In this document: piece by piece, positions 674-21,522 of the stretch
Position numbering within the stretch: the first letter of the stretch is position 1
How the letters are laid out: every line of letters starts with the position of its first letter
Origin: Catajapyx aquilonaris
Taxonomy: Eukaryota
Assembly: GCA_000934665.2 (NCBI GenBank)
Contig: KZ538331.1
Span: 62,001 to 83,522 of the forward strand
DNA: 21,522 bases
Direction of reading: 5' to 3'
Notes under the pieces: model-generated
What the model saw: only the letters and a program-made list of their open reading frames with translations
Told to the model about the DNA's origin: nothing
Databases searched by the model: none
Made by a program: the position numbers and the translations under genes

Positions 674-3600
674 GTGAGCATAAATATGCCAACATGCATG
701 GGTCTATCGCGAGAGAGAGGGGAGGAGGCGCGGCCGTTGAGGGGCGGCCGGGAAGGAGGGGAGTCCCGGTCGGTCGGCTGGACACTGATCGTTTTGGGGG
801 CCTACCTTTTGGGTGGAAAATTGTTTATTCACTTGGGACACTTGCGGGGGTGGGGGAGGAGAGGGGGGTTCAAGTTACGTCGTAGAGACGTTTTCGTGCG
901 TGATTACCAGTCTAGAGAGGACAGCAAACTGCTGCAGTATTTGTGGTATGTGGCATACAATATGGGATGTGTTCGGGGATGAGGGTTGGCATTTGAAATA
1001 TTTGGCCAATCTGGGTCCTTGTCAGGGTGAACCACCATGCATAATACCTCCTCTGGCAGTGTAATGATTTGGAAATTCGGGAGTAGAACTAGTCGTAACT
1101 GTCACTTACAAATTGCATAGGAAACTGCTGGCACTCCAAGTGGTGCTTTAACTATTTTAAATGATGGTTAAAAGCAGTTTTTAGTGGAAAGATTGTACCT
1201 AACCGTCACACTTATGGTATTGCGACTGAAGGTGATTGGTACTAGGACAAGCAGCGGCAGTTAATTTTTCTGGTGCCTTGTCATGACTTGCACAATATAT
1301 TGCTCAAGTTGATAGCATGAGCATGTGGAACTCCACTGCCCAATTTGGTGGTTTGGGTTCACGTGCACATTTTCTGTTCAATTGCATGGTGAAGCCTGTT
1401 TAGAACTAAAAATTCTTAGTGAGCCAGCTAGCCAGAATTTTCTGCCTTCACTAGCATGTAAACAAGTACAAATATTTGCTTTGGATGCTTGGCATATAGG
1501 GTTCTCCTGTACACCCACTATACCTTGCGCTGTACAATGTAGATCACAATCATTATGCATGGGGACTTTCATGCAAATTTTTGCATATGAATGTGAAGTT
1601 ACTTATGCTGACCTTCCATGAAGATCACTACACTAGTTTAGAAGGGAGTTAAAAGCACATTTACATTACTCATCTGAAAGGTATATCAATAGGCACATGC
1701 CACATGGGTGTGTTCAAAGATATGGCTTCTTTCTGGAAACACACTGAAATATTATTTCTGGTGAAGTCACCTTGCCACTTGGCAGAAGATAATAATATTA
1801 GCATTTTTCTGTTATTGGCATGACTAGATTTCTATGGGGAAATTAACGTGATGAGATGGATTTATGTGCTACATGTAAAGAGAGATCCCCTCAAACTGGC
1901 AAGTATGATTCATACACATGAATCAACAAAGCTAAAGTGACAGGAATAATGTTTTTATTTTGGTCAATTTGTTTATGCCCACGTTGCAAAGAACCCAAAG
2001 TGATATCAATATTGCTTTTAATTGATGCTGTGTAATGTGCGTTACAGTCCCAATTCATTCATTCATTCCATCAGATCATTAATCTCGTAATAGGGTAGCC
2101 AGCGATGACTAGTGTACACAGTTTCCATATATCAGTACACCTAGCCATCTCGATTATAGTCATAATGATGATCAAAAATTAACTACATATTTGTGAACTT
2201 GACTGAACACCATATTGCTACATGTAAAGCTCCAAGCCAGTGCAATTGGGGCCAGCCAGACTTTATAAATGCACAGCTGGTGCCTACACTGTACTGGCAG
2301 GTAGGATATGTAGTATGAAGTGTATCTCTGGAGCAGTACAGCCACTGCTGCTGTTGTGCCAAGAAAAGCCCAATCAATCCATCAATGATAATATGAAGTG
2401 GGGTTTTGTCCAGAGACATCAGATACCTGTATTACATACCTAGACAGCCACCACAGCCCTTCCCTATACCAGATGGAAACATGTGAAAACTTGGTGGCCG
2501 TATAACTTAGCAAAACCTTGATGATTACATTATGTTAATTAATGATGTTCAAGCACCCTACCATTTTTGATATGCTTACCACATGGCATTTATACATTTA
2601 TTTCACCAGTCATGATGTGTTTGTTGCATGGTGCTTTGATAAAATACATTTGTGAGTGGATCTTGTGATTGAATCTGCACATACCTCTGCAGGATTGTCA
2701 TTGCCTGAGTCCACAGTTCAAGATGAAGGCATGATAGACTGTGGAGAAGTTCTGGGTTGTTTACTTCAGCAACCTTATCAACCATCTGGTAGCAACTATG
2801 TCCGGGTGACATTATCTTGTCCTGATTTCTATTTCTATTTCTTTTTGCGTGCAGTCTTACTGCATTTAATTTTTTTTTACAAGGCAAGGGTTTGAATGGG
2901 ATTAAATGTGCTGGTCATATGGAGATAGGAAAGGCTGTGTTTCTCTTGGTCTGCCTCCAACCCCATACACACCTTTCTGGCTGGGGTGGCCTTGCTAGCA
3001 GATGAAGCTACTGCGGATATAGCTTTTGAAGTCATTGGAGAATGTGATACCGCACCACCATTCAATGATTCAGGCTGAAAAATGATAGATTTTTTTTGTG
3101 TGAAAATCTTAGGGGTACTGTAAACCTGCTTGAATTTTGCCAAGTTTAAGTACAAGGGGCTTTCGTAAATAAATTGTAATTGAGATGTTCATTAGTGCCT
3201 GACCAGATTTGACATTGTACTACTGTAAATATCAATATGAAAATGAGCGACTGAGTGCAGGCCTTTCATGTGCATATTTAAATATTATTGCAGATGCATT
3301 AAAGGATGCTTAAAAATATCACTCCTTCTTATTGAAATGCTTCACAAACATTTGGGAGAAAAATGTTTACTTTAAATTAAATATTATTAATAAAAATAAT
3401 GTACAGAGTAATAAATTGTAATGTCAGATGGAACTTTGGATCACTTTTATCCTACAGAGAGTAATTCCATAATGCATCTGCAGGTTTGCTGAGAGAAAGG
3501 TGAGCCAAGGGCAGTAGTAGATGGAGTGAATCAGGAAATAGGGCAAGTGATTTATTTTCTTTGTGGTTTAATAGTGAAGGACGCAGTCTTTTCCTGTGCC

Positions 3601-4048
3601 ATGCAGGATTGTATTTCATGCTACTGTGCAATCATGAAAGCATGGCACAATTTTTTATGTGGAAAGGGGAGATTGGTCAATAGTACTTTTTAGCTGAAAT
3701 TTTATGCTCATTAATTCATTGAAGACTGTCAAATTTTTACGGTCTTGTATTTCACACTCTTTCCAAGCTTTATGCAAGTAATGTGGATATGAGAAGGTAG
3801 GCCAGATCTTTCTGCATGTGCTAGTGCTATTGAGATGCTTACTTGATCTTTAAACAGGAGATGCGAGTCATCTTCATGATGTATGTTATAAAACACACCT
3901 ACAAACCAGGTGTTGCATGGTTAAAGTATCACAATTCTGCCACCTTAGAAGAAGAAAAATCCACACATCCTTAGTTCATATTGCTGGAAGTGCTTATTTC
4001 CAAAACACTGCAGGATGCCAGAGAAATGATAGTGAGGTCTGGAAGAAG

Positions 4049-4222
4049 CAAGGGGTAAATCACTCGTCAAGTCCGTTGTACGGTTGGCGCCAAGTCCGAC
4101 CAAGTCCGGGCTCAAGTCCGCTAAGTCCGGGCTCAAGTCCGACAAGTCCGAGCCCAAGTCCGACCAAGTCTGGCTCTTTACAAGTCCGTTGTACGCTCAA
4201 CTGCCGAGTGATTTACCCCTTG
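4049..4222. mobile_element. 174-bp non-autonomous DNA transposon (MITE), hAT- or P-superfamily-like
   Basis: Perfect 18-bp TIR CAAGGGGTAAATCACTCG (4049-4066 / 4205-4222) and perfect 8-bp TSD GGAAGAAG (4041-4048, 4223-4230). The interior has ten copies of AAGTC[C/T]G. Confidence 0.9.
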
Positions 4223-4651
4223 GGAAGAAGCCAGTGGCGGAGTGACCCGACTGGGAATCATAACTACTTCAATCAATTCATTAAGCATTATCTGCTTTGA
4301 ATACTGCTTATCGATTGATTATTTTCTGAAACAGTGCTGCTTTATAAAGGGGCCCCTCTGGGCTGGCCAAGAGGGATGTACAGTTTGAAACAAATATAGT
4401 CACATAACAACCAGATGCTTCATACAAGCATGTGGCATTTGGTCGCGATTAATAGATTTTCCCAGATGTTTTTTCCTCCCTTGCTAACAAGTTGTTTTCA
4501 TCAACCAGTAATGTTGTAGTGTGTCATTGTGGCTGGCAAAGATTTTGTTTAATTATTTTTTGTGGGTGAAGTGTGTTAAGATAAATTTGCTATAAATATG
4601 TTTATTTGTTTTGGCCTTTTCAGGTAGTGTGGTAACACTGGACCAAACAGA

Positions 4652-4890
4652 ATGTACAATGGTATAGGCCTACCAACCCCTAGGGGGTCAGGCACAAATG
4701 GGTACGTCCAACGCAACTGGGCCTTCATCCGTAAGTCAAAAGAGAAGGTCCAGTACAAGACTGAAGAGGAGTTGGAGAAGCTGGAGGCTCAGAACAATCG
4801 GCAGCCAAATCAAGATATCCTTGATCATGAGCGCAAGAGGAAAGTGGAGGTCAGGTGCATGGAACTCAAGGACATCCTGGAAGAGCAAGG
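4652..4890 (+). CDS. Srrm234: Srrm234 coding exon (exon 2 begins 4624; ATG 4652): N-terminal peptide and first part of the cwf21 domain
   Basis: MYNGIGLPTPRGSGTNGYVQRN...PNQDILDHERKRKVEVRCMELKDILEEQG matches the recognisable SRRM2/Cwc21 N-terminus. Acceptor ttttCAG 4621-4623; donor GG|GTAAGT (phase 2). Confidence 0.98.
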
Positions 4891-4979
4891 GTAAGTTGCG
4901 TTTAATATTGCAATATATTGAGCATGTTTTTATTAACATTTCCAAATGATTCCAAGGGATGCGAGGCCAGTATTAGAGG

Positions 4980-5304
4980 TTTTTTTTATTTTTTATTATT
5001 TTTAACCCCATTAAGAGATCAGCGCTCTTTTAGGGTGTTGTAACACCACCATATTTTCAAATTTTCTTGTAGTTTTCTTCAACTCCGTGCAGGGAAGAAA
5101 GGACATGGGGTAGGGATGGGGATTTTTTGAGGAGGGGAGTGCAATGTCTGAAACCGGGTCATGTGCAGTCTCCCTGGAGGTTAGGTTGCCAGATGCCTCC
5201 AAGGCGTGTGATGCAGGGGGAAGGGAACTCCCGGGTGGGGATCAAACCCGGGACCTTCCGCTCAGCAAGCCGTCGTGTTATTGACTTGGCCACCACTCCT
5301 CCCC
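4980..5304 (-). mobile_element. tRNA-derived SINE
   Basis: On the - strand: head with A-box-like TGGCCAAGTCAA (5281-5292) and B-box-like GGTTTGATCCC (5238-5248), a body of about 250 nt, and an A-rich tail (T-rich 4980-5003 on +). No clean TSD. Confidence 0.75.
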
Positions 5305-7051
5305 GTATTTGAATATTAGATAATTCATATGTCACATAATGAGATATCAATCATTTTTGGTACAGTAGATTGCAATGTATGCTGCAGCTATCTTGAAGAT
5401 GCATTTTGCAATATCTGTGGTAGTTGTGGGCATTAAAAAATAGTAAATTGCCACAAAAGGGCCTGCATGTTACAGAATGGCAGTCTGGTAGGGCGTGATA
5501 GGGAAAGTCAAGGGGAAAGGATAATGCCCATGTGGCGCTCTTTGAGTAAATTGGCGCCCGTCCAGGATACCTGCCAGTTATATGTGGTTATTTCTACACT
5601 GGCATCCACTTCTTTGTAGGTCAGTGATGCATGGGCTAAAATTCAGGAACTGCCTAGGAATTTAAGGCTTGGATTCCCTCTCATTTGCATACCAATGAAT
5701 GGATATGGCACCCAGAGGAATGAGATTAGATGTTTGTTCCCCCTTGTTATCATTAATGAAATATTGTGGCAGTGGGCTTCCGGAACTGCTTGCGTTTACA
5801 GGGTTGGGTGGGTGAGTGAGGAGTGGGAGACTCCTCCTAACTATTGATCAGTTCCAGGCTGCTGCCATGGCCTTAGTTGTTACAACCTTGCCCCACCACC
5901 CCACCCATTATCCACCTGACTATTACGAAAGTTGAAGGAGATGGGTTTGCAACAGGAGATAGCCTGGCCTAAGTTTTTTTTATATTCTTGCACAATTCTT
6001 TTGTCGTCCCAGCTGCTCAAATGAATAGCCATCTTGTTGGGAGTCGACAGGCGACAGCTTGCATTGTGCTGGGTTGGATTCCATGAGACAAGCGTGATGT
6101 TCAGGGAGTTGATGCCATTCTTTTCAACACTGACGGGAGTGTAAATTTACTCAGGGATTTCTTTGTGGGAATTCAGAGCATTATATTTCAGTGACAGTGG
6201 GATGAGGGTGTGGTGGCAGTGAAAAATAAAACTTGCTTGCAAAAGTGTACATTCTGTACACTCCCGATACAGTATCTCAGAAACTTGGCATCTCTACTGC
6301 TCTTTCTACAGTTTATAAATACTTGAATGCAGATAATAGCAAGGTCAACATTTTTGGATCCAGGTTCATGACAGGCTGTGATAAAGCCTGGTTTTAAAAA
6401 AAATATCCTTTAGGGAGACCGTACTGTGGAAAAGTAATGTAGTGACAGTAAGAGGTTTGCTTAAGATATATCACTGATTTATGAGGAAAATTAGATATAG
6501 TTGCATGGTAATGGTTTATTTTTAATTAGGTCTATTTGCTTATCAGTCAATGTAGTGATACAAGGGGCAGTGCAGTGGTGTCAGAGTGTAATGTAATGAT
6601 GTCACATTGTAAGCCTTACACACACTGGCCTTGCATGCTTGCACTTCTGCTTTGGTGTAATACCAGACCTTACACTGGAATAAACGAATGGTGTGTAGTA
6701 AGGCTATGCCGGGCTACGCCCTTCCCCTGCACTGGAATTAGCAAATGCTGCTCTTGCACCATTGGTGTTGCATCAGGGCCAGAACTGCTGATAAATGAAT
6801 AGACCTATTGTGGAAGGGTTGCAGTAATGCTGACAATAGGGAAGCACCATAATAGACATTGATAATAATAACTTATCAGTTAGATTTATGTAGTTCTATG
6901 GCATCACCACATATTAGTAAACTACACAAACAGGTTTTGGGATAATATTTGTTAAAATGGGATAAAATGTACTTGCTTGTGGATTTTGTAGAAAATTTTG
7001 GTCACGTGAGTCGATTTATTCAAAGAATCGCTTGTCATTTTAAATTGGCAG

Positions 7052-7156
7052 ATGCACCAAGGAGTACATAGAAGAGAAAGTAACAACATTCAGGGCTCAT
7101 TTGTTGGAGAAGGAAGGTCCCAATGCCATACCTCGAGATGAATTTGGACGACCATG
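7052..7156 (+). CDS. Srrm234: Srrm234 exon 3 (105 nt), rest of the cwf21 domain
   Basis: Not in the ORF track. Acceptor ggCAG, donor TG|GTAAGT. Translates in frame as (G)CTKEYIEEKVTTFRAHLLEKEGPNAIPRDEFGRP(C), similar to SRRM2 'IQEKVATFRLMLLEK'. Confidence 0.95.
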
Positions 7157-7490
7157 GTAAGTACATTTTTTTTATTTGGATGAGAGGAAAGACATTGACA
7201 ATAATAGAGAGTGCGGTGTGTTAGCTGCGACAAAATAAATCTATTGAGGCTTATGTAATGCAGTTGGTAGACACGAAGGATAGGTAGTCATGCTATCGTA
7301 GCATGTAAAGCAGTTGCCAAATGGAATAAATCATTCCTGCCCAGCATTGATCAAGCAAGGTGGAAATCCAGTTGATTATTGAGTCAGGAAAAGCCATTTC
7401 AGGAGACCTAGTTGTTAGGCTGACGACAGCTAAAAATGAGTAGGACCTGACCCAGTAAAAGGGATTAGACACTAGAAAATTGCAGACTCA

Positions 7491-9400
7491 TTAGCGTCTT
7501 CCTGGGGTAATTTTGGATCCAGGAGAGATAGGACATGCAGCTTTATCCAGAAGGAAGGTCACCCAAGTCATTAGGATTTTAAGCACCCTAATTATTGCTT
7601 CTTCTGATGGTGGTTCATTCGAGGTGTGTTGGGGGGGGTTAAAACTCGGCGTTTGCATAGCCGCATGCACTACCTCTCCCGGTCTTTTTCCACTTTTCCG
7701 ACTGGATCTGCGTGTGTAGCGTGAATATTGATCTGCGGCCTCGCCCCGCAAGAGCTGGTTGGAAAGTACGCGATTTTTCCGCCGGGCCCGGCTTCCATAC
7801 GGGGTCTTTTCATCCCCTCCCCGAACCTCAATGGGCACGTTTTGCACAGGAATTTTTCATCATTTTTTAAAAAATGAAAAGGACCCAAACTTTTCTGAAG
7901 ATTTTCGGGAGCACCTGGCGTTCCGAGAAGTTTTTCCGGGGCGAAATTCTCATTTGTCCGGATTTGCGGGGGGGTCTTAGGGGGAATAAAGTATGAGATT
8001 TGGGCATTCATACCCGGAAGAACCAGGGTGCAATCAAGGGTTATTAGTGTTTGCTCAGCATATCGAAATGCGATGCTTAGAATGGGGGCGAGGGTGATAT
8101 TGGATCCGGCCGTGTTTTTTTTGTTATGGGCGTCACATGGTTGTAATTAAATAAAACCGGTTCCAGCTTTATGGTCCCGGTGCTGCCGGTGTTTCGGGAG
8201 GGGTGGGTTGGAGGGGCTGCCACTATTGATTTGCAGGCAGAAATCCGGAGCATGGCGCCCGGATAGGGGGCATCTCCCATCCAGTGAGAGGAAAACGGAG
8301 GAAAAAGAGGGGGGAGAGAAGAGTATTTTGGGTGGATTGCCCCCGGGTCAAGTGGCGCCGGCGCCTAGGCCCGACCCGTAGGTTTTAGGGTCACGGCAAC
8401 ATTTTCGTAGGGGGCCCAATATGCGCGTTGAGGAATCGGCGCAGGGACGTCGCATTTGCGTGCGTGACTCGGTGTCTTGGGGCACACTGGTCACAACCAT
8501 GGCACTCTGGTACAGCTCAGGAGCGGCTGCAGTCAGAGCCTGGGTGCCTTTCCAGTTGGGAGCCTCTCGGAATTGGTGGTGACCATGTGAAAGACACATT
8601 GTTTGCAACGAGGTGCCTCAGCTAGTCTTCCATTTGAAACCAAGTCTTCCAGACGTACAATCCTACCAAGGGCTTCCATTGGTGTTCATGACTTTAGTTT
8701 TTTCGGTGTGCATGAAATAGTGTGTGATGCAGTGCCAGAGTAGGATGTCCAGAAAGGGACGACCCAAAATACCAGTTAGTCAGAGGGCACTTTTCGAGCG
8801 GTTGTGGCAGGGGACTTTCCGAGCAATCTTAGCCGAACAGACTCTGAGGACGGGAGCTGCACCTTATTGTGCCACTGAGTCGCTTCATCCGACATGCCAC
8901 TGTCCTTGCGTGATGACCAACACTTGCCTCAAGTGCCACTGCTGTCACCACCCACCTGTGATGGCCCATCACCACGACGATGTGGCAAACTTGAGAATAA
9001 GGGTCCTCACACCTCGCAGGGATAGTCACCCTTCTTGCAGGAAGACACTTCGGTCTGTGGTTAGGTATGGGAAAAATACTGAACAGCCTGCAGCTAGTGG
9101 GCTACTGTTTATTGGATTGCAGCTTGTGTTTAAAGGACCGGCTGCCAATCCTCTTAGGAATTCCACCATTGCGTTAAATCCCCACTCAGGCAGAGAAATC
9201 TCATTAATTATTGATAGGAGTTGGCTTAGCTTTATTGTCTTGGGTAGAGCTTTGATTGAATTAAAGGGCACCTCTCAGACCTTGCCAGGAAACATCAGTG
9301 TGGTACACCGAGAGTTCGTATTAAAGTAGTTCCTAAACCTAAGGCGATAATTGAGTGCGCGCTAATAATTCCAAAAACTTGCATGACCCATCAATACTAA
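7491..9400. mobile_element. GC/CpG-rich intronic segment, probably a decayed retroelement remnant; boundaries approximate
   Basis: Composition differs from the AT-rich introns. The - strand has broken Cys/His fragments (PRCKQC..SHGHH across a frameshift; ECHGCDQCAPRH) at about 8460-8615, resembling gag-like zinc knuckles. No intact ORF, termini or TSD found. Confidence 0.3.
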
Positions 9401-9534
9401 GTTGCCTTGTGAAAATTCATGTTCAGTTTCAAGAGTATTGAGCCAGTCAACTTGATATCAGCCTCTTTTTATGACTTGCGCTACTGGTACTATACATTAG
9501 TCCAATCAGTGATATATGAACATTTCTTTTACAG

Positions 9535-9873
9535 TGTGAAAGAGACTCATCAAATAGCAGAGGCGCAGCAAGAGAAGAATGCAAAACTTCGGGAGGCTTT
9601 TGGAATATCAGAGTTTTTTGTTGAGGGCAGCAGCCTCGATCCAAATCGCAAGGCAAAGGAGGCAGCTGCTAAAGCTGCAGCCACCACATCAGTGGAGGTG
9701 CAAAAGCAGTATGCTCTGGTACATTCACCCAGTGCTAGTCCTCAGAGAGAGGAGAACGAAAAGGAGAAGGAGAAGGAGAAGGAAAAGGAGAAGAGCAAGA
9801 AAGACAAAGTGGCAGAAAAAGGCAAGGACAAAGATGGTGACAAGATGAGCAAGCGGAAGAGGAAATTGTCCAG
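9535..9873 (+). CDS. Srrm234: Srrm234 exon 4 (339 nt)
   Basis: Acceptor ttttACAG, donor AG|GTAAAT. VKETHQIAEAQQEKNAKLREAFGISEFFVEGSSLDP corresponds to SRRM2 'ETHQLAELNEKKNERLRAAFGISDSYVDGSSFDP', followed by an EK repeat. Confidence 0.96.
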
Positions 9874-10080
9874 GTAAATGCAGTTTCCTTTGCTGCATAA
9901 ACTGCGTAGCTGACATTTGCATTGAGATTTGACATGAGAACACTACAAATGAGTAAGGAATATAGTGTACAGTAATAAATTGAAAATTAGATGCTGCATC
10001 TTCATTTGCTTGCAATAATGGAGAACATGCTACAAGTTTACCCAGACTTCAATTTACTCAACATTCTCATTTTACTTCAG

Positions 10081-10146
10081 ATCATCCAGTTCACACTCAC
10101 ATAAAGGCAAGAAGAAGAAGAAGTCCAGCAAGCGAAAACGTGAAAG
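10081..10146 (+). CDS. Srrm234: Srrm234 exon 5 (66 nt), Ser/Lys-rich
   Basis: Acceptor tttacttCAG, donor AG|GTAAGT. Reads in frame as (R)SSSSHSHKGKKKKKSSKRKRE(S). Confidence 0.92.
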
Positions 10147-11985
10147 GTAAGTGCATATGTTTGTGTGTGGCGGTACTTTTTTTTTGCCATTGGTAGATTT
10201 TATTGGTTACTCTTTCCACCTCTACATTACTCAACTGGATGGTAGGTTTATTGTGTGCAGCAGCAGAGGCAGGGTTTTAATACACTTGTGGTTTGAGGGA
10301 TCCTGTCATTGTCAATAAAGAAATCATAAGTAATTTTGATAACTTTTTTGCTTGTGATGTTGACTTTTGCTGCCATGTTTGAACTTGGGAATCCAGGAAA
10401 CCATAAGTTGTGGAAAAATACTGATTTAAATGATAGCCAACATAACACTGCTTCTGCTGATCTATGGTAGCCAAGAACATGTTTACTACTGTGGACATGG
10501 CTCATTTGTAACATTGTGTGTGTGAATGTGTGTGGGATAACAGCGGCAAAAAGTCAGGTCCAAATGTGAGATTGTAGTCATCTTAATGCCACCTTTTCAC
10601 TGTTTCTACATTGTTTGTTTATATATTGTGGGTGGGCATGAGTGTTCCTCAGATGAACTGAATAATGATGACATTTTTTTTCCTCATTCAACAAATTTCT
10701 TTCTATGCTGCACATGAGATTCAGTGTGATGTTACCCTAAACTAGCAGGTACGGTAGTAATTGTACATTTTTAGCACAGTTTTAAAAAGCCCTGTTCACA
10801 TAAGAAGACATCTGAAGCCTGTCAGTATGTTGGAATTTTGCTGTGATTCTTGTAGGATTTAAAAAATTATTCATGCACACAAACTGAAGAAATATTCTAA
10901 ATTAATGTCGAATTACATAGGGCAAATTTAACTGGTTGCTTTACAACATGTGTCATTCATTGGGAGGAGTCATTCGTGCTCATCAATGGGCTATGTAAAT
11001 ACCCACCTTACCATGGAAGTCATCGATGCCCTAATGCTTGGACAAGGCTGATTGCTATCCTCTCCTATACCACGCAAACATTTGTTAATACCTTTCTCTT
11101 TGCTTTTTTCTGACAAGTCCTTCCTATCGAAGGGTGCGAAAGGTAAAGCTCTTTGCCTAAGTCCTAGGCCTGTATGAGTGTGTCTTACCAATGGTGTTCT
11201 TTGTCAGAAATATTTTTAAGAATATCACCTATCTTTTCGCCTCTTTTATAGTCATGTAAATAATTATAAGCAAGTTTCTTTTGTGTATGTTTCTTTTCAC
11301 TCGGGAAGTTTTGAAGTGAACACCTTGCAGGAACAGTGCCTGCATTGCTTTCAATTTCAGAGAAGAAATAAAAGAATAAGTAGAAATTTGTCCTTCAGAG
11401 GAATCTCAGGCACTTTTTCACCCACTTAACTACTAGCCCCTTAAAATTTTATAGATGTTGGGATCCAATTGGATGTAGACCTTGGAATATGTGCATAATT
11501 TTTTAGCGATTGCTGGAGGTTCCTCATTGGGTCTAAATTTAATTGTCAAGTAAGATATGGCATGTGGGACAAAGGTAAGGATCCAACTTCAGAACAGAAA
11601 CACCAATACTTACGGGATTTTAAAAATACACTAGTTTGGAGAGGCACATCTGAGAATATATTTTTATTTGTGTCAGTACTTCTTAAGTTTTTGAGTCTTT
11701 GTAGATAGCTTTTCACACATCTTGAAACCATGTATTTTTAAAAATAACTATGTTGTATTGCCTTTTTCTGTATATTAGTGATTTCTTTTGTTGCACACAG
11801 CACTTTTGTGAGATTAACGTGTCACCTCAGTGGCACCTAGCCACCTGCCTAAAGTATTCATGAGAAGGGGGGGAGAAAAGAACAGTAATTTTGATTGTAC
11901 CATGGCCTAAATTGTATTGTCAGCATTACTTGCTATTTGGAGAGGAGCCCAAATTTTTTCATGGTTTCTTCTACCCTTCTTAAAG

Positions 11986-12150
11986 TTTGGAGGCTCGCTC
12001 AAAAAAGCGTAGCAAGAAGAAGAAGAAGGAACAGCGCCGGAGGCATCGTGCTTCCTCCTCATCGTCGTCATCATCCAGCTCTTCATCATCATCTTCCTCG
12101 TCCAATGACAGCAGTTTCACCGACTCTTCATCCTCATCCAGTTCTAGCAG
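11986..12150 (+). CDS. Srrm234: Srrm234 exon 6 (165 nt), basic stretch plus poly-Ser
   Basis: Pyrimidine tract with AAG acceptor, donor CAG|GTATGA. Reads in frame as LEARSKKRSKKKKKEQRRRHRASSSS...; phase 2/2. Confidence 0.9.
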
Positions 12151-12672
12151 GTATGAGGCAGATCTTCTCTGACTGATGAACAGTTTTAGGGAAAGATTGT
12201 TATATTCCAGACAGAGTTCATGTCTTTCTTCCCAAGAGTAGTACATTCCAAACTCAATAATATGATGATCTTTGTAATCATATTATTTTTATGCAATAGA
12301 ATTGAAATTGCACTTTCTGTACCTCATCAGTTTTGTTTTGATCAAGTTAAGTTCATCTGCCTTTTCACATACTAAACAGGCACTTTTAAACTACCTGTAA
12401 GTACGTTGGGCACTTGAGCTCCTTTGCATGCAATGTGATGGGTGTTGAACACTGCTATGTAATATGGCAGGAGCATCGAGAGATGCCATATGTACCGTTG
12501 TTTTACACGGATCTGCTTTCCGAGGCACACATTTTTGTTTCCTTATTTGCTATTTTGATTTATTGCCCCTGGAGGTTATTGAATTTTTTTTTGTGCTGCT
12601 AGTTGCTTACTTTCTGACTTAAAGCCAGGAATGAATAATCACCCATTTTTTTCTGCCTGCCCTTCTCCACAG

Positions 12673-12702
12673 ATAGTCATTTTGAGTTTTGACTTTATGG
12701 AG
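12673..12702 (+). other. Srrm234: Candidate 30-nt poison (PTC) cassette microexon
   Basis: Long pyrimidine tract ending ccttctccaCAG and a consensus donor GAG|GTGAGT. In-frame TAG (12674-12676) and TGA (12683-12685). TGC motifs at 12654 and 12658. Confidence 0.6.
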
Positions 12703-13825
12703 GTGAGTACTGGCCTCTTCTATACCCTCATTTAGGACAACTCAGTAGAAGCAAAAGCTATTGTAACTTAGCTTATTGGTTCCACTCAGTTATCCACACA
12801 TCGGATACCCAAATTTTCACCTACTTCACAAAATGACAAGCATTCAGAAAGTTCATTTCTTTGTTTTCTTTGTGCAAAAGATGCCGTAGTAAAATTGCCA
12901 GTTTTCTTTGCACCAGTTGGGTAATTGTTTCATGGATATTCAGCTGTCCTATGCAAGATGAACTTACTGCAGATGATTGTAAATATTAAATTGCCCCTTT
13001 TCTTTTAAGTACAAGGGTCAGTCTAATGACAATTGACCAGGCATCCTTTGCCAGCATGGTGATTACTAAATAGATTTTAAAAGCCAATTTGAGCCGTCAG
13101 CAGGTTCTAATCCACATGAACCCCCCCACTCCACCTTGTCAGGCTGAATCACCATGAGGATGGGTGACAAGGGGGATATGGTACGGAGGCTGACCCTTTT
13201 CTTCTCAACCTGGTTTCTCTACCTCTGGCCCAATTTTCTTTAGTAAGGTAGATCGACAGTTCTCTGAAGACATTTTTACTCTGATGTCAATGCAACTTTT
13301 TAGGTGTGTTGAAGAGACTTCAGTGAATTGCCAGTGTCCCATGTTATCATGACATATGTGTGTTGGTTGATTTTCATTCAATTGACCCTTGTAATTTGGC
13401 CAATGCATCTGCCCAACCTACCATCATGTATGAGAAAGTGATAACTGCAGATTGGCATACGCAAAAGATACTTTTATGTGCCTTGCACAAAGGATGAATT
13501 TTGTGTGCTCTGACAACGTGCAGTTAACATCTTTCTGGTGTTGAATAAAATTGTAGTTCAGGCCTTCCATGGGACGGTAGTATTGACAGCTCTTGTAGGC
13601 TTTCCTTGTAGAGCATGCTAATTATGTGATTCCTTCTGACCCAATGGAAGTTATCCAGAGTAAGGAATGTGTGGGGTTCAATTTTAAATTAAACAAAGTT
13701 AGTGTCAGTTACCTTGTAGTGAAAAGCACTTCCTAGAATGGAAGTTCAAAACTGACCAAAAAAAGGAGCATTTTGTAATTTTCACAACTGTAATCTGAGT
13801 TTCTGTTTCTCCCAAAATCTTCCAG

Positions 13826-13858
13826 ACCTCGACAGGAGAATATTACTGCAGCAAAGAG
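13826..13858 (+). other. Srrm234: Candidate 33-nt frame-preserving cassette exon (RPRQENITAAK)
   Basis: Acceptor ttctgtttctcccaaaatcttcCAG, weak donor GAG|GTACAA. Symmetric phase 2/2 and stop-free in the Srrm234 frame. Confidence 0.35.
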
Positions 13859-14944
13859 GTACAAAATACAGTACAATTCCACATCCTAGTTTTAAAAGAA
13901 AACTGCAGGGTTGCAACAGTGGCATTGAATTATTATTAATCACATAAAGATAATGGAATAACTGATATAATCAGTCAGCCAAACCACTAATATTGGATGG
14001 TAATCCGCATTAGGAAACAAGTACTTTCTAAGTATAAAGTACAATTACCAGAATTTCAGGATTATGATAATTTTGTGAATGTTGAGTGTTGTCCTTTACA
14101 TTCCAACTGCTAATTTAAATTGCAGGTTAATAGAAATAGAGTTGGAACTAAACTTTTTATTCAGTTATGCACCAGCTCAACTGGGCATTATTTGTATAAT
14201 CGCAAGAAAACCTGGTAATTAATTTGAAAATGTTTGTATTGCCCAGGTTTTTGACTTTGATAATGATCGAAATTTTGCCTGATATGTGGAGTGGTTGGTA
14301 ATTGCCATGTAATGGGCAGGTGGCCTATTCCAATACCGAAGTGTTTTCTGTCACTTTTGGTAGGGAGGCTTTGTTCCAGTCAAAAATTATGTATGTTGGT
14401 GTTGGAATAAGTGTAGTCGGCCACAATGATTGCGGGATGATTGGAATGTGGGTTTGTCACTCAAGCACGTATTGAAGAACAAGCTGCACTTATTGACTCC
14501 AAATAATACAAGCCTATCCAGAAGGCAGGGGTGGGCTGGGAGTGGGTGGCCTTAATAAAGGTGGGAGTCAGAGGCAGGCAGCAGCTCAAGGCTGCCACGT
14601 AATGGCTGAATGTCGCAAGTCCTATATTATGTATGTCACTGTCCACATGTATGTGGGGAAAATCCCATTACTTTTATATGGAGTCACTGAGAAAACATGT
14701 TTGTGAGACATTGCAGGAACGTGAGGCTAACCCTTAAATTTACTACTGCAACAACTTGAAAATATGTGAGCTATTGTGTACATCTGTGGAGGATGATACA
14801 ACATGTATTTAAAACAAGAGGAAAGTGAAATATTTCTGGAAGTTGCTTGCTAGGTTATGGAATTCCTGTGCAGTGACATTAGTACATATACCTGTCTGAG
14901 CAAATATGAGGGTTGCTTTCCTTGTGCAGATTACCATACATTTA

Positions 14945-15100
14945 GGGCCAGTTGCACCGGCCTCAGTAAGAATTGCCACAGCAATCATTGTTGGTCAACA
15001 ATGATTGCTATGGCAATTCTTGTTGGTCAACAATGATTGCTATGGCAATTCTTGTTATACCCGAGGTTCTAAGTTGTACTGAGGCCGGTGCAACTGGTCC
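14945..15100. mobile_element. 156-bp PIF/Harbinger (Tourist-like) MITE
   Basis: 24-bp TIR GGGCCAGTTGCACCGGCCTCAGTA (14945-14968 / 15077-15100, 1 mismatch) flanked by a TTA TSD (14942-14944, 15101-15103). Contains an internal palindrome and a 32-bp tandem duplication. Confidence 0.88.
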
Positions 15101-15440
15101 TTAGTAGTGATTGACTGGTCAGTTTAGGCTGTTATCCCATTATTGTGTGCATGGCCCAAGTGGCTGGAATTTATGCATCAATCAGCTGGACACTAGAATT
15201 AACCATTGCACAAAGTTGGATTAGGGAAAAGTATTATGCAATTAATTTTATGTCACGGATCATTGCAAACGAGCAGCATGCATTTATTTTATTGTTGCGT
15301 CCCAATTTTTTTGTCTTTTGAAGCGGGTTTTGTTTTGCTCATTGTGTGTGCCAATTCTTGCAAACGAAAGTGTGAGAGCATCGAGATCAGTGGCATTGGA
15401 TATGCATATTAACTGGATTGCCTATTTTCTCTATTTACAG

Positions 15441-15552
15441 TACTTCTAGCAGTGAGGATGCAAAGCGCAGAAGCAAGAAAGGGAAGCGAAAGGGAGGCCG
15501 ATCAACAGAGAGACTACGAATCGGCAGAGATGGCCCAAGGGGGTTCACAGAG
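15441..15552 (+). CDS. Srrm234: Srrm234 exon 7 (112 nt)
   Basis: Acceptor ctatttACAG, donor GAG|GTAAAA. Reads in frame as (S)TSSSEDAKRRSKKGKRKGGRSTERLRIGRDGPRGFTE; phase 2/0. Confidence 0.88.
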
Positions 15553-16062
15553 GTAAAAGACCAAATTCAACATTGGTTTAATTTTTTTCGAGTGGTGTCT
15601 ATATTCAGTCCATGGCATTCTTCCTTTGTTTTTGATGCCTGTAAGAGGACTTTGTTCAAAAATAATAATTTAAATGGGTATTGTTATTGTACGTATACTG
15701 TCGAATGGTGCAGGTATAGTTATTGCGATTCAAGTAATGTTCATTGCATGCTGACCTTCAACAAGAGGTGTGTGTTTGACTGAGAAGTTGGCTGGGTGTG
15801 TGTGAATGTGTGTTGTGTGAATCATCCCAGTTATTTGACATGGAAAAGTTGGTCAATAATCCTTCTCATTTGTGACATCATGCATCAATTGTAGGAGAGA
15901 TTAAGTCCTCTTTAAAATGAGTAAGTATGGCAGGAGAGAGTTGTTGTAGCAACCTTCTTGCACTGAACTTCTTTACTTGCACTTGGTTTTTTTGTGTGTT
16001 TGTGTGCATGCAGTAAGGTGGTGGAATAATGCAGATTTTTAAATGCCCTTATTTCATGGCAG

Positions 16063-16127
16063 AAGAAGAAGCGCAGTGACAAGGCCAAGAAAAGCCATAG
16101 GTCTTCGTCCAGCAGTTCTTCTGAAAG
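16063..16127 (+). CDS. Srrm234: Srrm234 exon 8 (65 nt)
   Basis: Acceptor ggCAG followed by tandem AAG triplets, donor AAG|GTAGGT. Reads KKKRSDKAKKSHRSSSSSSSE(S); phase 0/2 restores the frame with exon 7. Confidence 0.88.
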
Positions 16128-16630
16128 GTAGGTTGGGTTGGAGATTTTCTTCTTCTTTGACACTGGTTCTTTCTGTAGGCAATTTGTAGAACATAAGCCA
16201 TGATTTCGTAGGCATTCACAGGCAGTGGACCCGTTTCATTTCCTTCATCATCAGAGTGTTTACTTGTGGTTCTGGCCTGTTTCTTGACCATGATGTATGA
16301 AACTGTATGTAATCAAGGAAGGAAGGAAATGTATTTGTGTGTTTCATACAATGTCAGTATATTTATATAGGTCACATGCACTCTATTTATCTTTGAAAAT
16401 ACAGTAGTAGGCTCTCTGATTCTGCAAGTTCGTAACTTTTAAGCCAAGTACACCACTGAAGATATTTTGTCAAGTGAAAGTTTTTTAGATGTTATCAAAT
16501 GTTCATGTTTGTAAGCATTTATTAATGACAACATCCATTAGATAATCGGAAAAATACATAATTATCAGTTGAGAAATCTGCCCTTAGGGATTGAAAATGA
16601 ATGTTCTGATCTGTGTAACCTACATTACAG

Positions 16631-17608
16631 TGCACCTCCAAGAAAGAAGCCTCATTTGACAACTAGTACATCTCAAAAGAATCGCCGAAACAAGTCACCT
16701 GAAGCATCTGCAATAAAAAAGAACTCTGCACTAAATCACGGCTCCTCAGTAAATAGAGATCTCTCTTCCCACGCAAAAGAGAGACTGGCCGAAGTCGTGT
16801 GGAGGAGGAACCAGGAACGCAATGAGGAGGAGGGCAAGGGCAGGGAGTCTCGGAAAGAGAGACGTAGGCGCAGTCGCAGCCGCAGCTGGAGCCATGGGCG
16901 ACACCCCCAGGACCGACAGGACCAGAAGGGGAACAGTCATGTTGCTTTGAGAGAAAGGAGCCCTGCACCAAGGAAACTAGAATCCAAGCCAGCTAAATCA
17001 ACATCAAAACCTCCTCCTTTCATCCACTCCCCATCCACCTCACCTCCAGCTGCACCATCTCCCCAGTCACCAAAGCCGCGACCAGCATCAGTTATAACAG
17101 CCACAGCACCACCAGTACAGGTCGCCATGCACAATCGCAGTCGCAGCAGTAGCAGCTCAAGCTCCTCCAGCAGACTGAGCTATTCACCAGTGCAACGCAA
17201 TCCAGAGCGGTACAAGGACATACTTGCACCAGCCCCAAAGCCCACCCTGGAAAACAACAACATTACACAGCAGAAGAGCATAGAGGAGGTGGCGGAAGAG
17301 AAGGCAGCTGCAGCTCTTAGAGTGCAGAAAGTGTTGATTCATCTAGGCAAGGGGCGGGACAAGCCCGTGCTCCCTCATGGCCTGTTGGAAGCAGAAACCA
17401 AGGAGAGGAGTGTAGAAAAGACGTCGCTCTCACCACCAGCTCCTTCAAATCAGTTGGGGATGACTGAGGTTAAGAAGATGATGCCGTCTGATTTATTAAG
17501 AAACGTCAACTCATCCAAGAGAGCAGAGCTGTTGCCCAGGAAATCACGATCCAGGTCTCCTAACAACAAGGCACCAGACTGGGTCAGAAAGGGCCACAAA
17601 TCACCCAA
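16631..17608 (+). CDS. Srrm234: Srrm234 exon 9 (978 nt), large low-complexity R/S/P-rich exon
   Basis: Lies within ORF 16569-17612. Acceptor attACAG, donor AA|GTGAGT. Contains RS dipeptides and Pro/Ser-rich tracts; phase 2/2. Confidence 0.93.
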
Positions 17609-17946
17609 GTGAGTGCTCTTTGCTATGTAAAGGTTGCTTTCCGCTGGCATCACCTTTGTTGTTGCCTTTGTCAAAGTTTCCTGAGTTGGTCCTTGCCTTT
17701 GGTTGAAGATTAGAACAAAATAATGGCAAATAGGAAGGCTCCCTCTTGGGAGGAAATAGCCTGGAAACCGGGCATTAAGGGTATATTTTAATATTGCCCT
17801 CCAGAAGAATGAGATATTAAAAGGCAAACCTAACTTAATTATCTGTGACTCTCGCTAGTGCCTGAAATGAAGATGTTTATTTTAGGCAGAGTAATTGAAT
17901 GTTTTTCTGGTTTTCTACCATGTTTTCAAACATGTTCATTTTGCAG

Positions 17947-18348
17947 GAAGCAGAGTCGGAGCCGCAGTCGCAGCAGTGGAGGGAGCAAGAGCCGCAGTCG
18001 CAGCTCTTCATACAGCCGCTCATCCCGATCAGCCAGTCGTAGTGTCTCACCTGCAAGGAGTCGGAGCCGCAGCCGCAGTCGTTCTTCACACTCCAGGTCT
18101 CGTTCATCTCGGTCTAGGAGCCACTCCAAGTCATCTGGGAGCAGCCATAGCCGGAGCAGGAGCCACAGTCGTAGTCGGAGCCATAGCCGGAGCTTCTCAA
18201 GAGCTTCCAGTCATAGTGGAAGCCACAGCAGCTGCAGTGGGAGCAAGAGCAAGAGCCATTCAAGCCAGTCGCGCTCCAGATCTCGCTCACCATCTATTCC
18301 TAGGAGGAGGGGATCACCCAGCTTTTTGGATAGACGTCGCATCACCAG
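17947..18348 (+). CDS. Srrm234: Srrm234 exon 10 (402 nt): RS domain and N-terminal half of the eMIC domain
   Basis: Acceptor ttttGCAG, donor CAG|GTGAAG. RS/SH repeats end in SPSIPRRRGSPSFLDRRRIT, compared with SRRM4 'RRRDSPSHLEARRIT'. Confidence 0.95.
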
Positions 18349-18431
18349 GTGAAGTTCATTATATTTTCAGAAGCATTAGGGAGTGAAATTTTCAGCACTT
18401 TAGCATCAATTTTTTTTTTCCTTGTTTGTAG

Positions 18432-18516
18432 CAGGAAGCTTCCGAGTTCCCGCCCTATTAGTTACAGGTCATATGACCGCAGAAGGTCGCCTCCACAGCA
18501 TCAGCGTCGCAGATAA
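18432..18516 (+). CDS. Srrm234: Proximal alternative last coding exon (eMIC-negative isoform, about 851 aa)
   Basis: Strong U-tract with a tandem TAGCAG acceptor. Reads in frame as (S)RKLPSSRPISYRSYDRRRSPPQHQRRR* and is followed by an AT-rich UTR and AATAAA. Confidence 0.8.
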
Positions 18517-19000
18517 AATGTATGCAAGGAGGACAGCATGTGAAACTCGTGAATTGTACATGTCATAAGCCTAGCGCTAGTTCCTGCTTGCTGGTGGTTT
18601 GTCTTGCAAAACCACACGTGACAGCCAATTTGAGGAGTGACATTCTTTCATGTGAAAAATTGGATTTCTCATATCCATCTTAACTGAAGGCACTGCTACA
18701 TAGCCTCTTTGACAAAATAGTCTCCATGCAGAGGCAATAGTACCCCTGAACACTCCACACTAAAATATCCGAGTTAGGCAGGAACATGACTGCTAGTTTA
18801 AATTTTACTGAAGATATTGAGTAACAACTGTCACGTTCCTATAATTTTGAGGCAAATGTAATTGAAAATGTCTCCCACGTTTGCTTTTTTTTTTTGCTGC
18901 AGTAGCACTTATGTATTTCTTCATTATTTTGTAATTTGATCATGGAATGGTTAATTTCATGTTTTTGGCGCAAGTTTGGTTTTCTTTTATTTTGATCTTG

Positions 19001-19070
19001 TGTACTCTGGAAATAAACACACCATTTACTTTGTTATTATTGATTTGGCATGAGTTTTATTCACTTTTCT
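19001..19070 (+). terminator. Proximal cleavage/polyadenylation signal
   Basis: TGTA (19001-19004), AATAAA (19012-19017) and a U/GU-rich downstream element (tttactttgttattattgattt). Confidence 0.7.
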
Positions 19071-19774
19071 AAGGTGCATGATCTGGTAATTGTTTTACTT
19101 TTATTAGAGCGACCAGTGTGGATGCATTTTTGTTCTTGAGTTCCACGCACATTGAGAAGAAGCACATCATAGATGCTGTACTTTTTCCAGGTAAAAGAGA
19201 TTTTTGGTTTGTGATGTAGGTTAGTCCTCAGTTCACATTTTTGTAACTTTGCTGTTCTCTTTTAATTGCCTTCACGGCTTTAGTGCTCCATTACCTTTCT
19301 TCCAAAAATTGTTAATCAACTAACATTTTTGCTTTCCCAGGATTAACTACTGTATCTCATCCCAGCCCATTCTACCCTACCTTAATTGCAGTACCTTTTG
19401 AGGAATCTTGCAGGAAATTCAAGCATGCTGCATGAAACTTACCCTTAAGCAATTTGGTTCATTAACTCCGAGTCAATATTGGGAATTAATCTAGAGTGGA
19501 ATGGGCTTGATTACTAATCACTGATACTAGTGGTAGTGACTCAGGTAGGAAGCAACTCGTGGAACTACTTTGGTATCTTCAGTCACACTCAACAGTGGAA
19601 TTATTGTATTTATATTGAGTCACGACTCAGGAAACTTTGCGCCTGCTTTCCATAATGCCAAGGGCAATTATTAATTGATTGGAATTACATCAATTGAAGT
19701 ATCACGAGTTGCTCCCTCAACATGAAGTGCTGCCTGGCATGTGATGTGAAAATATACCGTGTTTCCCCCCACAG

Positions 19775-20063
19775 CGCTCGCAAAAGGCCAATTCCGTACC
19801 ACCGGCCAACTCCACCGACACCTTCAAGTCCATCAAGTTGCAGCAGTTCCAGTGGGGGTGACGGTGGAGGGAGTGGCAGTGGAGGGGGTGCAGGAGTAGG
19901 TGGTGGCGGTGGCAACGGAGGGGGTGGTGGAATGGGTGGGCTAGGAGGTAGTGGAATTGGTGGTGGGGTTGGGGGAGGGGGTTACCAGAGCTGGTCAAGG
20001 GTCAGGTCTCAAAGGCTTTCTCAATCTAGATCTCGAAGCGCCAGCCGCTCATCCAGTCAGTGA
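19775..20063 (+). CDS. Srrm234: Distal alternative last coding exon completing the eMIC (SRRM3/4 C-terminal) domain; isoform about 919 aa
   Basis: Acceptor tttccccccACAG. Joins exon 10 in frame to give ITS-ARKRPIPYHRPTP, compared with SRRM4 'ITSARKRPIPYYRPSP'. Followed by a Gly-rich tract, an RS tail and TGA. Confidence 0.95.
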
Positions 20064-21432
20064 AATATATCACAGGAACTAGATATGGCTGAAACGTTTT
20101 CATAATGGGTGGGGTCAATATATATTTTGTTATGTTTTATTTGGATTGCAAACATACGCATGTCTGCAATTCAAGATTAATTTATTTAGCAAAACTACTT
20201 AGTACTTGAGTATATAATACTCGTAATAATTGTGATCTCAAGAGTATCTTTTATTCGCCATTACGTTCATACCTACACACCTTTTAGAGAATTGTTACTC
20301 GAGGTCTCTAATAGAAACTAATTCTGAAACTATTCTTGTCACATGCCAAAAGCTCTTGAATTTTTATTCATGTTCAAATCTAAAGTAGATTGTTTCCTTA
20401 TCGCTGAAAAATAAGCAGCAATGTAAAGTACAGGCATTGAGGCTTGTTGGTTTGGCGAACTGAAGGATTAGTCGACTAATTAATTCACGGAAGTTAAATA
20501 ACGGAAATGATACAATTACATGTGATAAGTGGTGAAAAAAAAATCCTGATTTTTAAAATGTTGATTTTGATTGAAACTAATTTATAGAGTTCTGAAAGAA
20601 AAAATTGAACAAATATTTCCTGTAATATTGCATGTGAAGTCGGGATTTGCATTCATGTGGTTTGCACTTGAATGATGTGTGTCAGGGATATGTAAAAATG
20701 AGAGGATGGTATTGGAAATCAAAGCTTTACCTGACAATACCAAAGGCTTGCCTTTCTAAACTAGAAGGGGGGGAAATATTTAAAATTTTAGTCATACGTA
20801 GAAGTGTAGTTTGCCTCTGAATCACTTATACAAAGGTGTCATTGTAGTCACTAGAGAGTATTGAGGCAGTCTTGCTTGGCAATAATTATGATCAAGAATA
20901 ATGACACTTCAGGATGGCGTACTTAAAAAGTTGTGTTGCGGATTTGAAGTACAAATTTTTGTGGGCATTCTTTCTCAAGTTGTGAAAAGTACAGTGTCAA
21001 GTACTTGAGGTGTGTAAACAATCAGGAGAGATGAAGTCAGGGTAAAGAAAGCAGGCAAAGTCATGGATGAGTCAAGTCACTTATTTGAGTGCATGTTTTA
21101 TGATTGACATGGCATGCTTAATTTATTGTATGGTAACTTATAATATTTATTGAATGTGTGATCCCAGTTTGCTGTGTGATGTTAATTTTTCCATTATGTT
21201 TCAGCACAGTTCAGGGTGTAATCAGGGTTACAACCCATGTTGGAGTCCATTAAATTTTTGGCACATGCAACTTTCTTCCACTGTGCAAGTAGTTTTCCAA
21301 CTGTGATTGGTGCTTTCAAGAGGTAAATCTAGTCTCTGGGATCCGATGCCCATAAGCATATCGTGGACTGCTCATGGTACTTTTTTGCAAAGTACGGTAT
21401 TAAAAAGTTAACTAAGGATTCCCATCATTTAA

Positions 21433-21522
21433 GGGGGCCGGATACCAAAGTCTCCCGCCAGTTTTCAGCCCGCTTCGAGCCAAAATTCGGCGTGCCGACT
21501 TGTCTTCAACCTGCTCGTACGG
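21433..21522. mobile_element. Possible left end of a TTAA-targeting DNA transposon, truncated by the window edge
   Basis: Abrupt change from AT-rich to CpG-rich sequence right after TTAA (21429-21432), starting GGGGG. The other end is not visible. Confidence 0.3.

Follow-up and report, generated by a model that had tools for sequence, protein, structure and literature searches.

The window, a stretch of 21,522 nucleotides from Catajapyx aquilonaris, carries on its plus strand the arthropod copy of Srrm234, the ancestral gene of SRRM2, SRRM3 and SRRM4. We propose, with good confidence, that this one gene gives rise to two C-termini from one donor located inside the coding sequence of the eMIC domain, the proximal last exon being the default and the distal last exon being used in neurons, by analogy with the fly. 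By default, the near and T-rich acceptor would be chosen across an 86-nt intron, a splice that was observed, and the exon from 18435 would complete an 850-aa protein of cwf21 and RS regions; without a whole eMIC, this form would act as a general SRm300-type co-activator, its 3' end presumably being formed via a poly(A) signal at 19012. Transcripts that skip the proximal exon along with its 3' end are predicted to use the T-poor, weaker acceptor at 19774 and to encode a protein of 919 aa in which eMIC is intact. As in the fly, ELAV/Hu would bring about the bypass in neurons, and the 919-aa product would promote the inclusion of short UGC-marked neural exons.

Identity and structure of the gene

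Nine coding exons, from the ATG at 4652 to 18348, are joined in frame in the exon model. The RNA evidence consists of the spliced contigs of a single public run (X1), the kind and tissue of which are not on record; these contigs hold nine GT..AG joints, which are the eight upstream coding introns and the proximal last joint. The non-coding exon 1 (501-673, donor after 673) has an approximate 5' edge; in the X1 contig 170 loose letters precede 4621, and their consensus fits 641-670. Exon 2 (4624-4890), defined by Pfam and a spliced joint, contains the ATG and the first half of cwf21, and exon 3 (7052-7156), with joints on both sides and in the model, carries the rest of the cwf21 region. Exons 4 (9535-9873), 5 (10081-10146), 6 (11986-12150), 7 (15441-15552), 8 (16063-16127) and 9 (16631-17608), the last being of low complexity and rich in R, S, K and P, are supported by the model and by spliced joints. 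Pfam and the spliced contigs define exon 10 (17947-18348), which holds RS repeats and the N-terminal part of eMIC (SRRM_C 2-55) and ends at the common phase-2 donor.

The cwf21 profile (PF08312) matches exon 2 alone at 35.8 bits against a cut-off of 23.2, the 850-aa form has an RS-rich low-complexity body with 47 RS/SR dipeptides, and SRRM_C/eMIC is present C-terminally according to both Pfam and an alignment of the core. The first-pass annotation had suggested searching the spliced product for cwf21 and SRRM_C, and the profile search matched both domains, the 919-aa model being open. In the species' own genome, an assembly of 20,583 contigs, the cwf21 exon was matched once (1 candidate scored) and PF15230 once (7 scored), in each case at the Srrm234 locus; no separate SRRM3/4 paralog was found, and the gene is a single locus in an assembly whose completeness is not established.

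The nearest named rows are Odonata, and the cwf21 region shares 129 of 164 residues with the damselfly Hetaerina (P0003). A tree built from 37 hand-picked rows, none of them a named crustacean or myriapod, places the window among the insect rows and in no supported small clade; chelicerates, molluscs, annelids and vertebrates form a supported group that excludes it. The homolog search with exon 9 yielded nothing among 8000 candidates scored.

Several other elements were observed around the exons. Many unrelated contigs pile up, at high depth and with loose ends, over a short repeated element in intron 2 (5080-5275), which is probably a dispersed repeat, and short intronic tandem repeats with units of 21 nt and 32 nt are located at 4089-4170 and 14981-15056. 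The upstream neighbours, numbered along locus L003, lie at 3190-4293 (plus strand), 4400-7330 (minus) and 7848-9897 (minus). One neighbour there is an SH3-domain ORF recognized by Pfam; other upstream exon pieces, labelled by eye, resemble a WD40/THOC6 gene and an ionotropic-receptor gene, and the three pieces tested gave no Pfam match.

The split eMIC domain and its two last exons

The donor CAG/GTGAAG after 18348 is in phase 2, and the intron that separates it from the distal acceptor spans 18349-19774 (1426 nt). Within exon 10 Pfam aligns SRRM_C profile positions 2-55 (E 5.9e-9, 36.9 bits, cut-off 27), and in the distal frame positions 56-67 (E 0.0077, 17.2 bits, below the cut-off alone), such that the two halves abut exactly at the intron; the earlier claim of an eMIC motif cut by a 1.4-kb phase-2 intron is thereby borne out. 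The predicted coding part of the distal last exon (19775-20063) follows a T-poor acceptor, completes eMIC and continues into a Gly/Ser-rich tail, and the spliced distal model reaches its stop at 20063 as a 919-aa protein with no internal stops.

Of 199 AG sites between 18349 and the window end, only the AG at 19774 is followed in phase by xARKR, and the chance of finding the 8-residue motif after any of the 199 is about 4e-9. Once joined, the 35-residue core is identical at 35/35 positions to that of Hetaerina P0003 and at 28-34 of 35 to the other 23 of the 24 complete cores collected, and it is near the SRRM_C of three fish proteins. A profile built from the 24 cores scores the distal form at 71.4 bits versus 35.0-40.5 for five other endings. 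The 18348-19775 joint is thus strongly implied by the conservation of the joined motif. The first 14 residues of the distal exon are likewise identical to the damselfly, and the tail beyond is Gly-rich (32 G in 95 aa). The Gly-rich run of the distal exon is encoded at 19860-19990; in Hetaerina P0003 a Gly-rich run is found instead just upstream of eMIC. A probable distal 3' UTR (20064-21522), covered by X1 contigs and continuing to the contig end at 21522, contains ATTAAA at 21249 and 21399; AATAAA does not occur between the distal stop and that end.

The proximal joint was seen directly in an X1 spliced contig, in which 86 nt with GT..AG ends are skipped between 18348 and 18435. This short intron (18349-18434) has a T-rich acceptor with a tandem AG (TAGCAG), and the length of the skip indicates that the second AG is used and that the proximal exon begins at 18435. 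The competing terminal exon put forward by the first-pass annotation is therefore spliced, and its start has to be moved from 18432 to 18435. The exon (18435-19040; contig record 4 extends over 18432-18984, and the 3' edge is set by the AATAAA) adds 26 further full codons, a short RS-type tail, before the stop that ends at 18516, giving a product of 850 aa, and is followed by 3' UTR; the proximal frame has no Pfam match and no eMIC.

A candidate proximal poly(A) signal (AATAAA, 19012-19017), recognized from the sequence alone, is followed by T/GT-rich sequence and is the sole AATAAA between 17001 and the window end. The signal had been proposed before and is indeed there, yet one AATAAA in the 18349-19774 intron, with 0.42 expected, is not above chance, so that poly(A) use at 19012 is put forward as putative. 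The main X1 contig ends at 18984, 28 nt before the signal, contigs of one study being unable to show RNA ends. Counted over 17 nt, the distal acceptor has 5 T, the proximal 11-13 and the nine upstream acceptors 6-11; a proximal acceptor that is near and T-rich and a distal one that is far and T-poor fit a default proximal choice.

Also within the proximal 3' UTR, at 18880-18905, another T-rich sequence resembles an acceptor and has UGC motifs and a tandem CAGTAG; no CTAAY branch match was found for it, and splicing to it would add a different short tail lacking eMIC. A brief RP-I-x-Y similarity, together with a MAFFT alignment, prompted the idea that the proximal exon is a decayed duplicate of the distal one. 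We rejected this idea, as the likeness is not above that of shuffled sequences for the peptide (p 0.21 and 0.15) or for the DNA (p 0.07-0.79 over eight scoring set-ups); the bare 4-residue pattern gave p 0.004, having been chosen after the fact.

Homologs share the boundary at the end of exon 10. The search with the cwf21 exon returned 120 proteins, the motif being reached in 17 and not in 103; of these 17, the second half follows in 5, a different tail in 9, and a stop within two residues in 3. For the end of exon 10 the corresponding figures, over 20 of 20 representatives, are 8, 8 and 4. As tails that start with RY, RW or RF may stem from gene models that ran past the donor, these counts show a common exon boundary more than real alternative exons.

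Control of the choice and alternative readings

The distal joint is not among the nine X1 joints, and the bin 19268-19835 has zero contig cover; since contigs of one run drop rare variants, neither absence speaks for or against the distal splice. X1 contigs do cover the sequence from 19836 as far as the end of the window, at a mean word depth of 3-6 versus 44 for the main contig and 0-4 for intron pieces, word depth being a poor measure of expression. A distal exon that is a relic, no longer spliced, would agree with the joint missing from the contigs, with the unusual Gly-rich run past the motif and with the lack of AATAAA downstream within the contig. Against it stand the 14 first residues matching the damselfly, an acceptor in the right phase, an open frame and the X1 cover downstream of 19836, and as a dead exon is not expected to retain a perfect motif, we consider a relic extremely improbable. 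We think it unlikely, too, that the proximal segment serves chiefly as a poison exon within transcripts reaching a distal poly(A) site, or that the intron is retained, polyadenylation at 19012 being minor. A single AATAAA is expected by chance, the fly has an isoform G of this type (10.1101/2021.02.24.432780), and read-through of the donor meets an in-frame TGA at 18350-18352 that stops the protein at 824 aa, but the main contig does contain the spliced proximal joint. This reading alters the RNA route only and, as the protein outcome (no eMIC) is identical, it may coexist with the switch between two last exons that we favor.

Regarding the factor behind that switch, an ELAV/Hu-like gene is represented by five exon matches on one contig, covering profile positions 1-350, none of them above the whole-protein cut-off alone. 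UUUNUUU occurs 7 times in the proximal UTR versus 1.6 times in shuffled sequence and is absent between 19041 and 19774; as these matches overlap in two T-rich clusters and the motif is also enriched in introns 1, 5 and 6 (p 0.01-0.05), it does not single out ELAV control. The lack of specificity of this motif is compatible with both last exons being used without being confined to neurons, or being governed by some factor besides ELAV/Hu, and so are the missing tissue label of X1 and the position of the window in no supported small clade among the insect rows; moreover, the fly paper shows the exact layout for holometabolous insects only (10.1101/2021.02.24.432780). However, the same source reports that ectopic eMIC is harmful in the fly wing, and its introduction and a review call neural post-transcriptional control general for non-vertebrates, and we judge unrestricted use to be quite unlikely.

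The targets of the 919-aa product were approached through one gene. A 6-nt APBB microexon is reported as an ancestral eMIC target, and we place it in the APBB gene at a position that we presume to be the ancestral one. The APBB/Fe65-like gene, the sole ancestral target checked, has no intron at this site. Its PTB region is uninterrupted there at about 1750-1900 on the minus strand of locus L008 (G000:C20), by intron loss or as a retrocopy. As eMIC targets turn over fast in insects according to the fly paper (10.1101/2021.02.24.432780), this result says little, but it does not support a program. A DENN search of the genome did not identify MADD.

Scanning the distal intron brought out a candidate third acceptor (19320-19351), whose AG ends at 19340 after a 55-nt AG-free zone, with CTAAC at -21, UGC at -11 and 13/17 pyrimidines; the GT donors downstream, 11 and 50 nt on, are weak. 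It is the sole full match, in the ten introns and the downstream stretch (~18 kb), to an eMIC-target signature taken from the published fly work (10.1101/2021.02.24.432780). The minus strand of the window has none, and the background has 1 match in 136,598 bases (19 other loci, both strands), the thresholds having been set after the site was seen and the background including loci from the DENN search. It is conceivable, at a low probability, that the 19340 acceptor belongs among the targets of eMIC, opening either a frameshifting microexon of 11 nt or a further terminal exon. Splicing to it would disrupt eMIC and draw transcripts away from the eMIC exon, and would thus form a negative feedback loop by which the eMIC isoform limits its own synthesis.

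In flies a photoreceptor-specific third acceptor is described at this very boundary (PMC8797185), and given this acceptor and a 4-residue insert in Myzus, a feedback exon could be widespread. We found no description of such feedback in the literature searched, figures and supplements being outside its scope, and the text of PMC8797185 contains neither "feedback" nor "autoregulat". If true, the loop would cap from within the dose of a regulator to whose level flies are known to be sensitive (PMC8797185), and it would be the sole novel element here. Elsewhere in the intron, at 19173-19197, a pyrimidine run and CAG are followed directly by GTAAAAG; this AG/GT looks like a site of recursive splicing, or else like the donor that would end an in-frame exon of 18 nt whose acceptor is poor.

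Comparison with known systems

The cwf21 domain and RS body of the window gene are as in vertebrate SRRM2 (SRm300). The combination of cwf21 and eMIC is the layout of SRRM3, and vertebrate SRRM4 proper is a separate eMIC gene without cwf21, with which three fish rows are consistent: these have SRRM_C and no cwf21, whereas the distal form of the window gene has both. The distal form retains cwf21 and is encoded by the sole locus found, and it is not SRRM4. Of the earlier proposal that one locus encodes both SRm300-like and SRRM4-like factors, the single locus and the split domain hold, and the term SRRM4-like is loose. In vertebrates the jobs are split among paralogs and eMIC is controlled by transcription, according to the fly paper (10.1101/2021.02.24.432780); a review considers the ancestral bilaterian state to be one SRRM234 gene whose distal last exon is neural. 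Further literature was drawn on (PMC10551640, PMC12992808, 10.64898/2026.09.14.751627, 10.64898/2026.09.05.749416, 10.1101/2024.09.17.613571).

In aphids, a mite and an abalone, NCBI isoform sets show the same boundary after RRIT as the window gene, with and without the ARKRP half. The Haliotis asinina isoforms are identical over 493/493 aa and then diverge, one with and one without eMIC, and those of Myzus persicae, Acyrthosiphon pisum and Tetranychus urticae are annotated as diverging at the same residue. The proximal tails of these sets and of the window gene are unrelated in sequence, and some annotated Myzus persicae isoforms (P0134 and P0157) carry a 4-residue (12-nt) insert between the eMIC halves, in contrast to P0158.

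Another close likeness is to the 3' end of Drosophila Srrm234 (CG7971), in which isoforms A/G and C/F show the same switch layout (10.1101/2021.02.24.432780, the same paper as PMC8797185). In fly neurons Elav/Fne cause the proximal exon with its poly(A) site to be skipped, and short neural exons are promoted by eMIC only when it is complete (10.1101/2021.02.24.432780). The parallel with Drosophila drawn by the first-pass annotation is supported by the split domain, the proximal exon and the conserved joined core. There are differences: the proximal tail has 26-27 residues in the window gene and four in the fly (PMC8797185), and the distal exon of the window gene adds a Gly-rich tail, unlike that of the fly. 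Neural bias, ELAV/Fne control and activity have been demonstrated for the fly switch and are predicted by analogy for the window gene. For annotation, single-isoform or whole-body models would retain the 850-aa form, with its acceptor at 18435, and miss the eMIC exon. The finding is a real one but not out of the ordinary: the switch is known from flies, isoform annotations of aphids, a mite and an abalone already include it, and the window adds one more arthropod to a published system.
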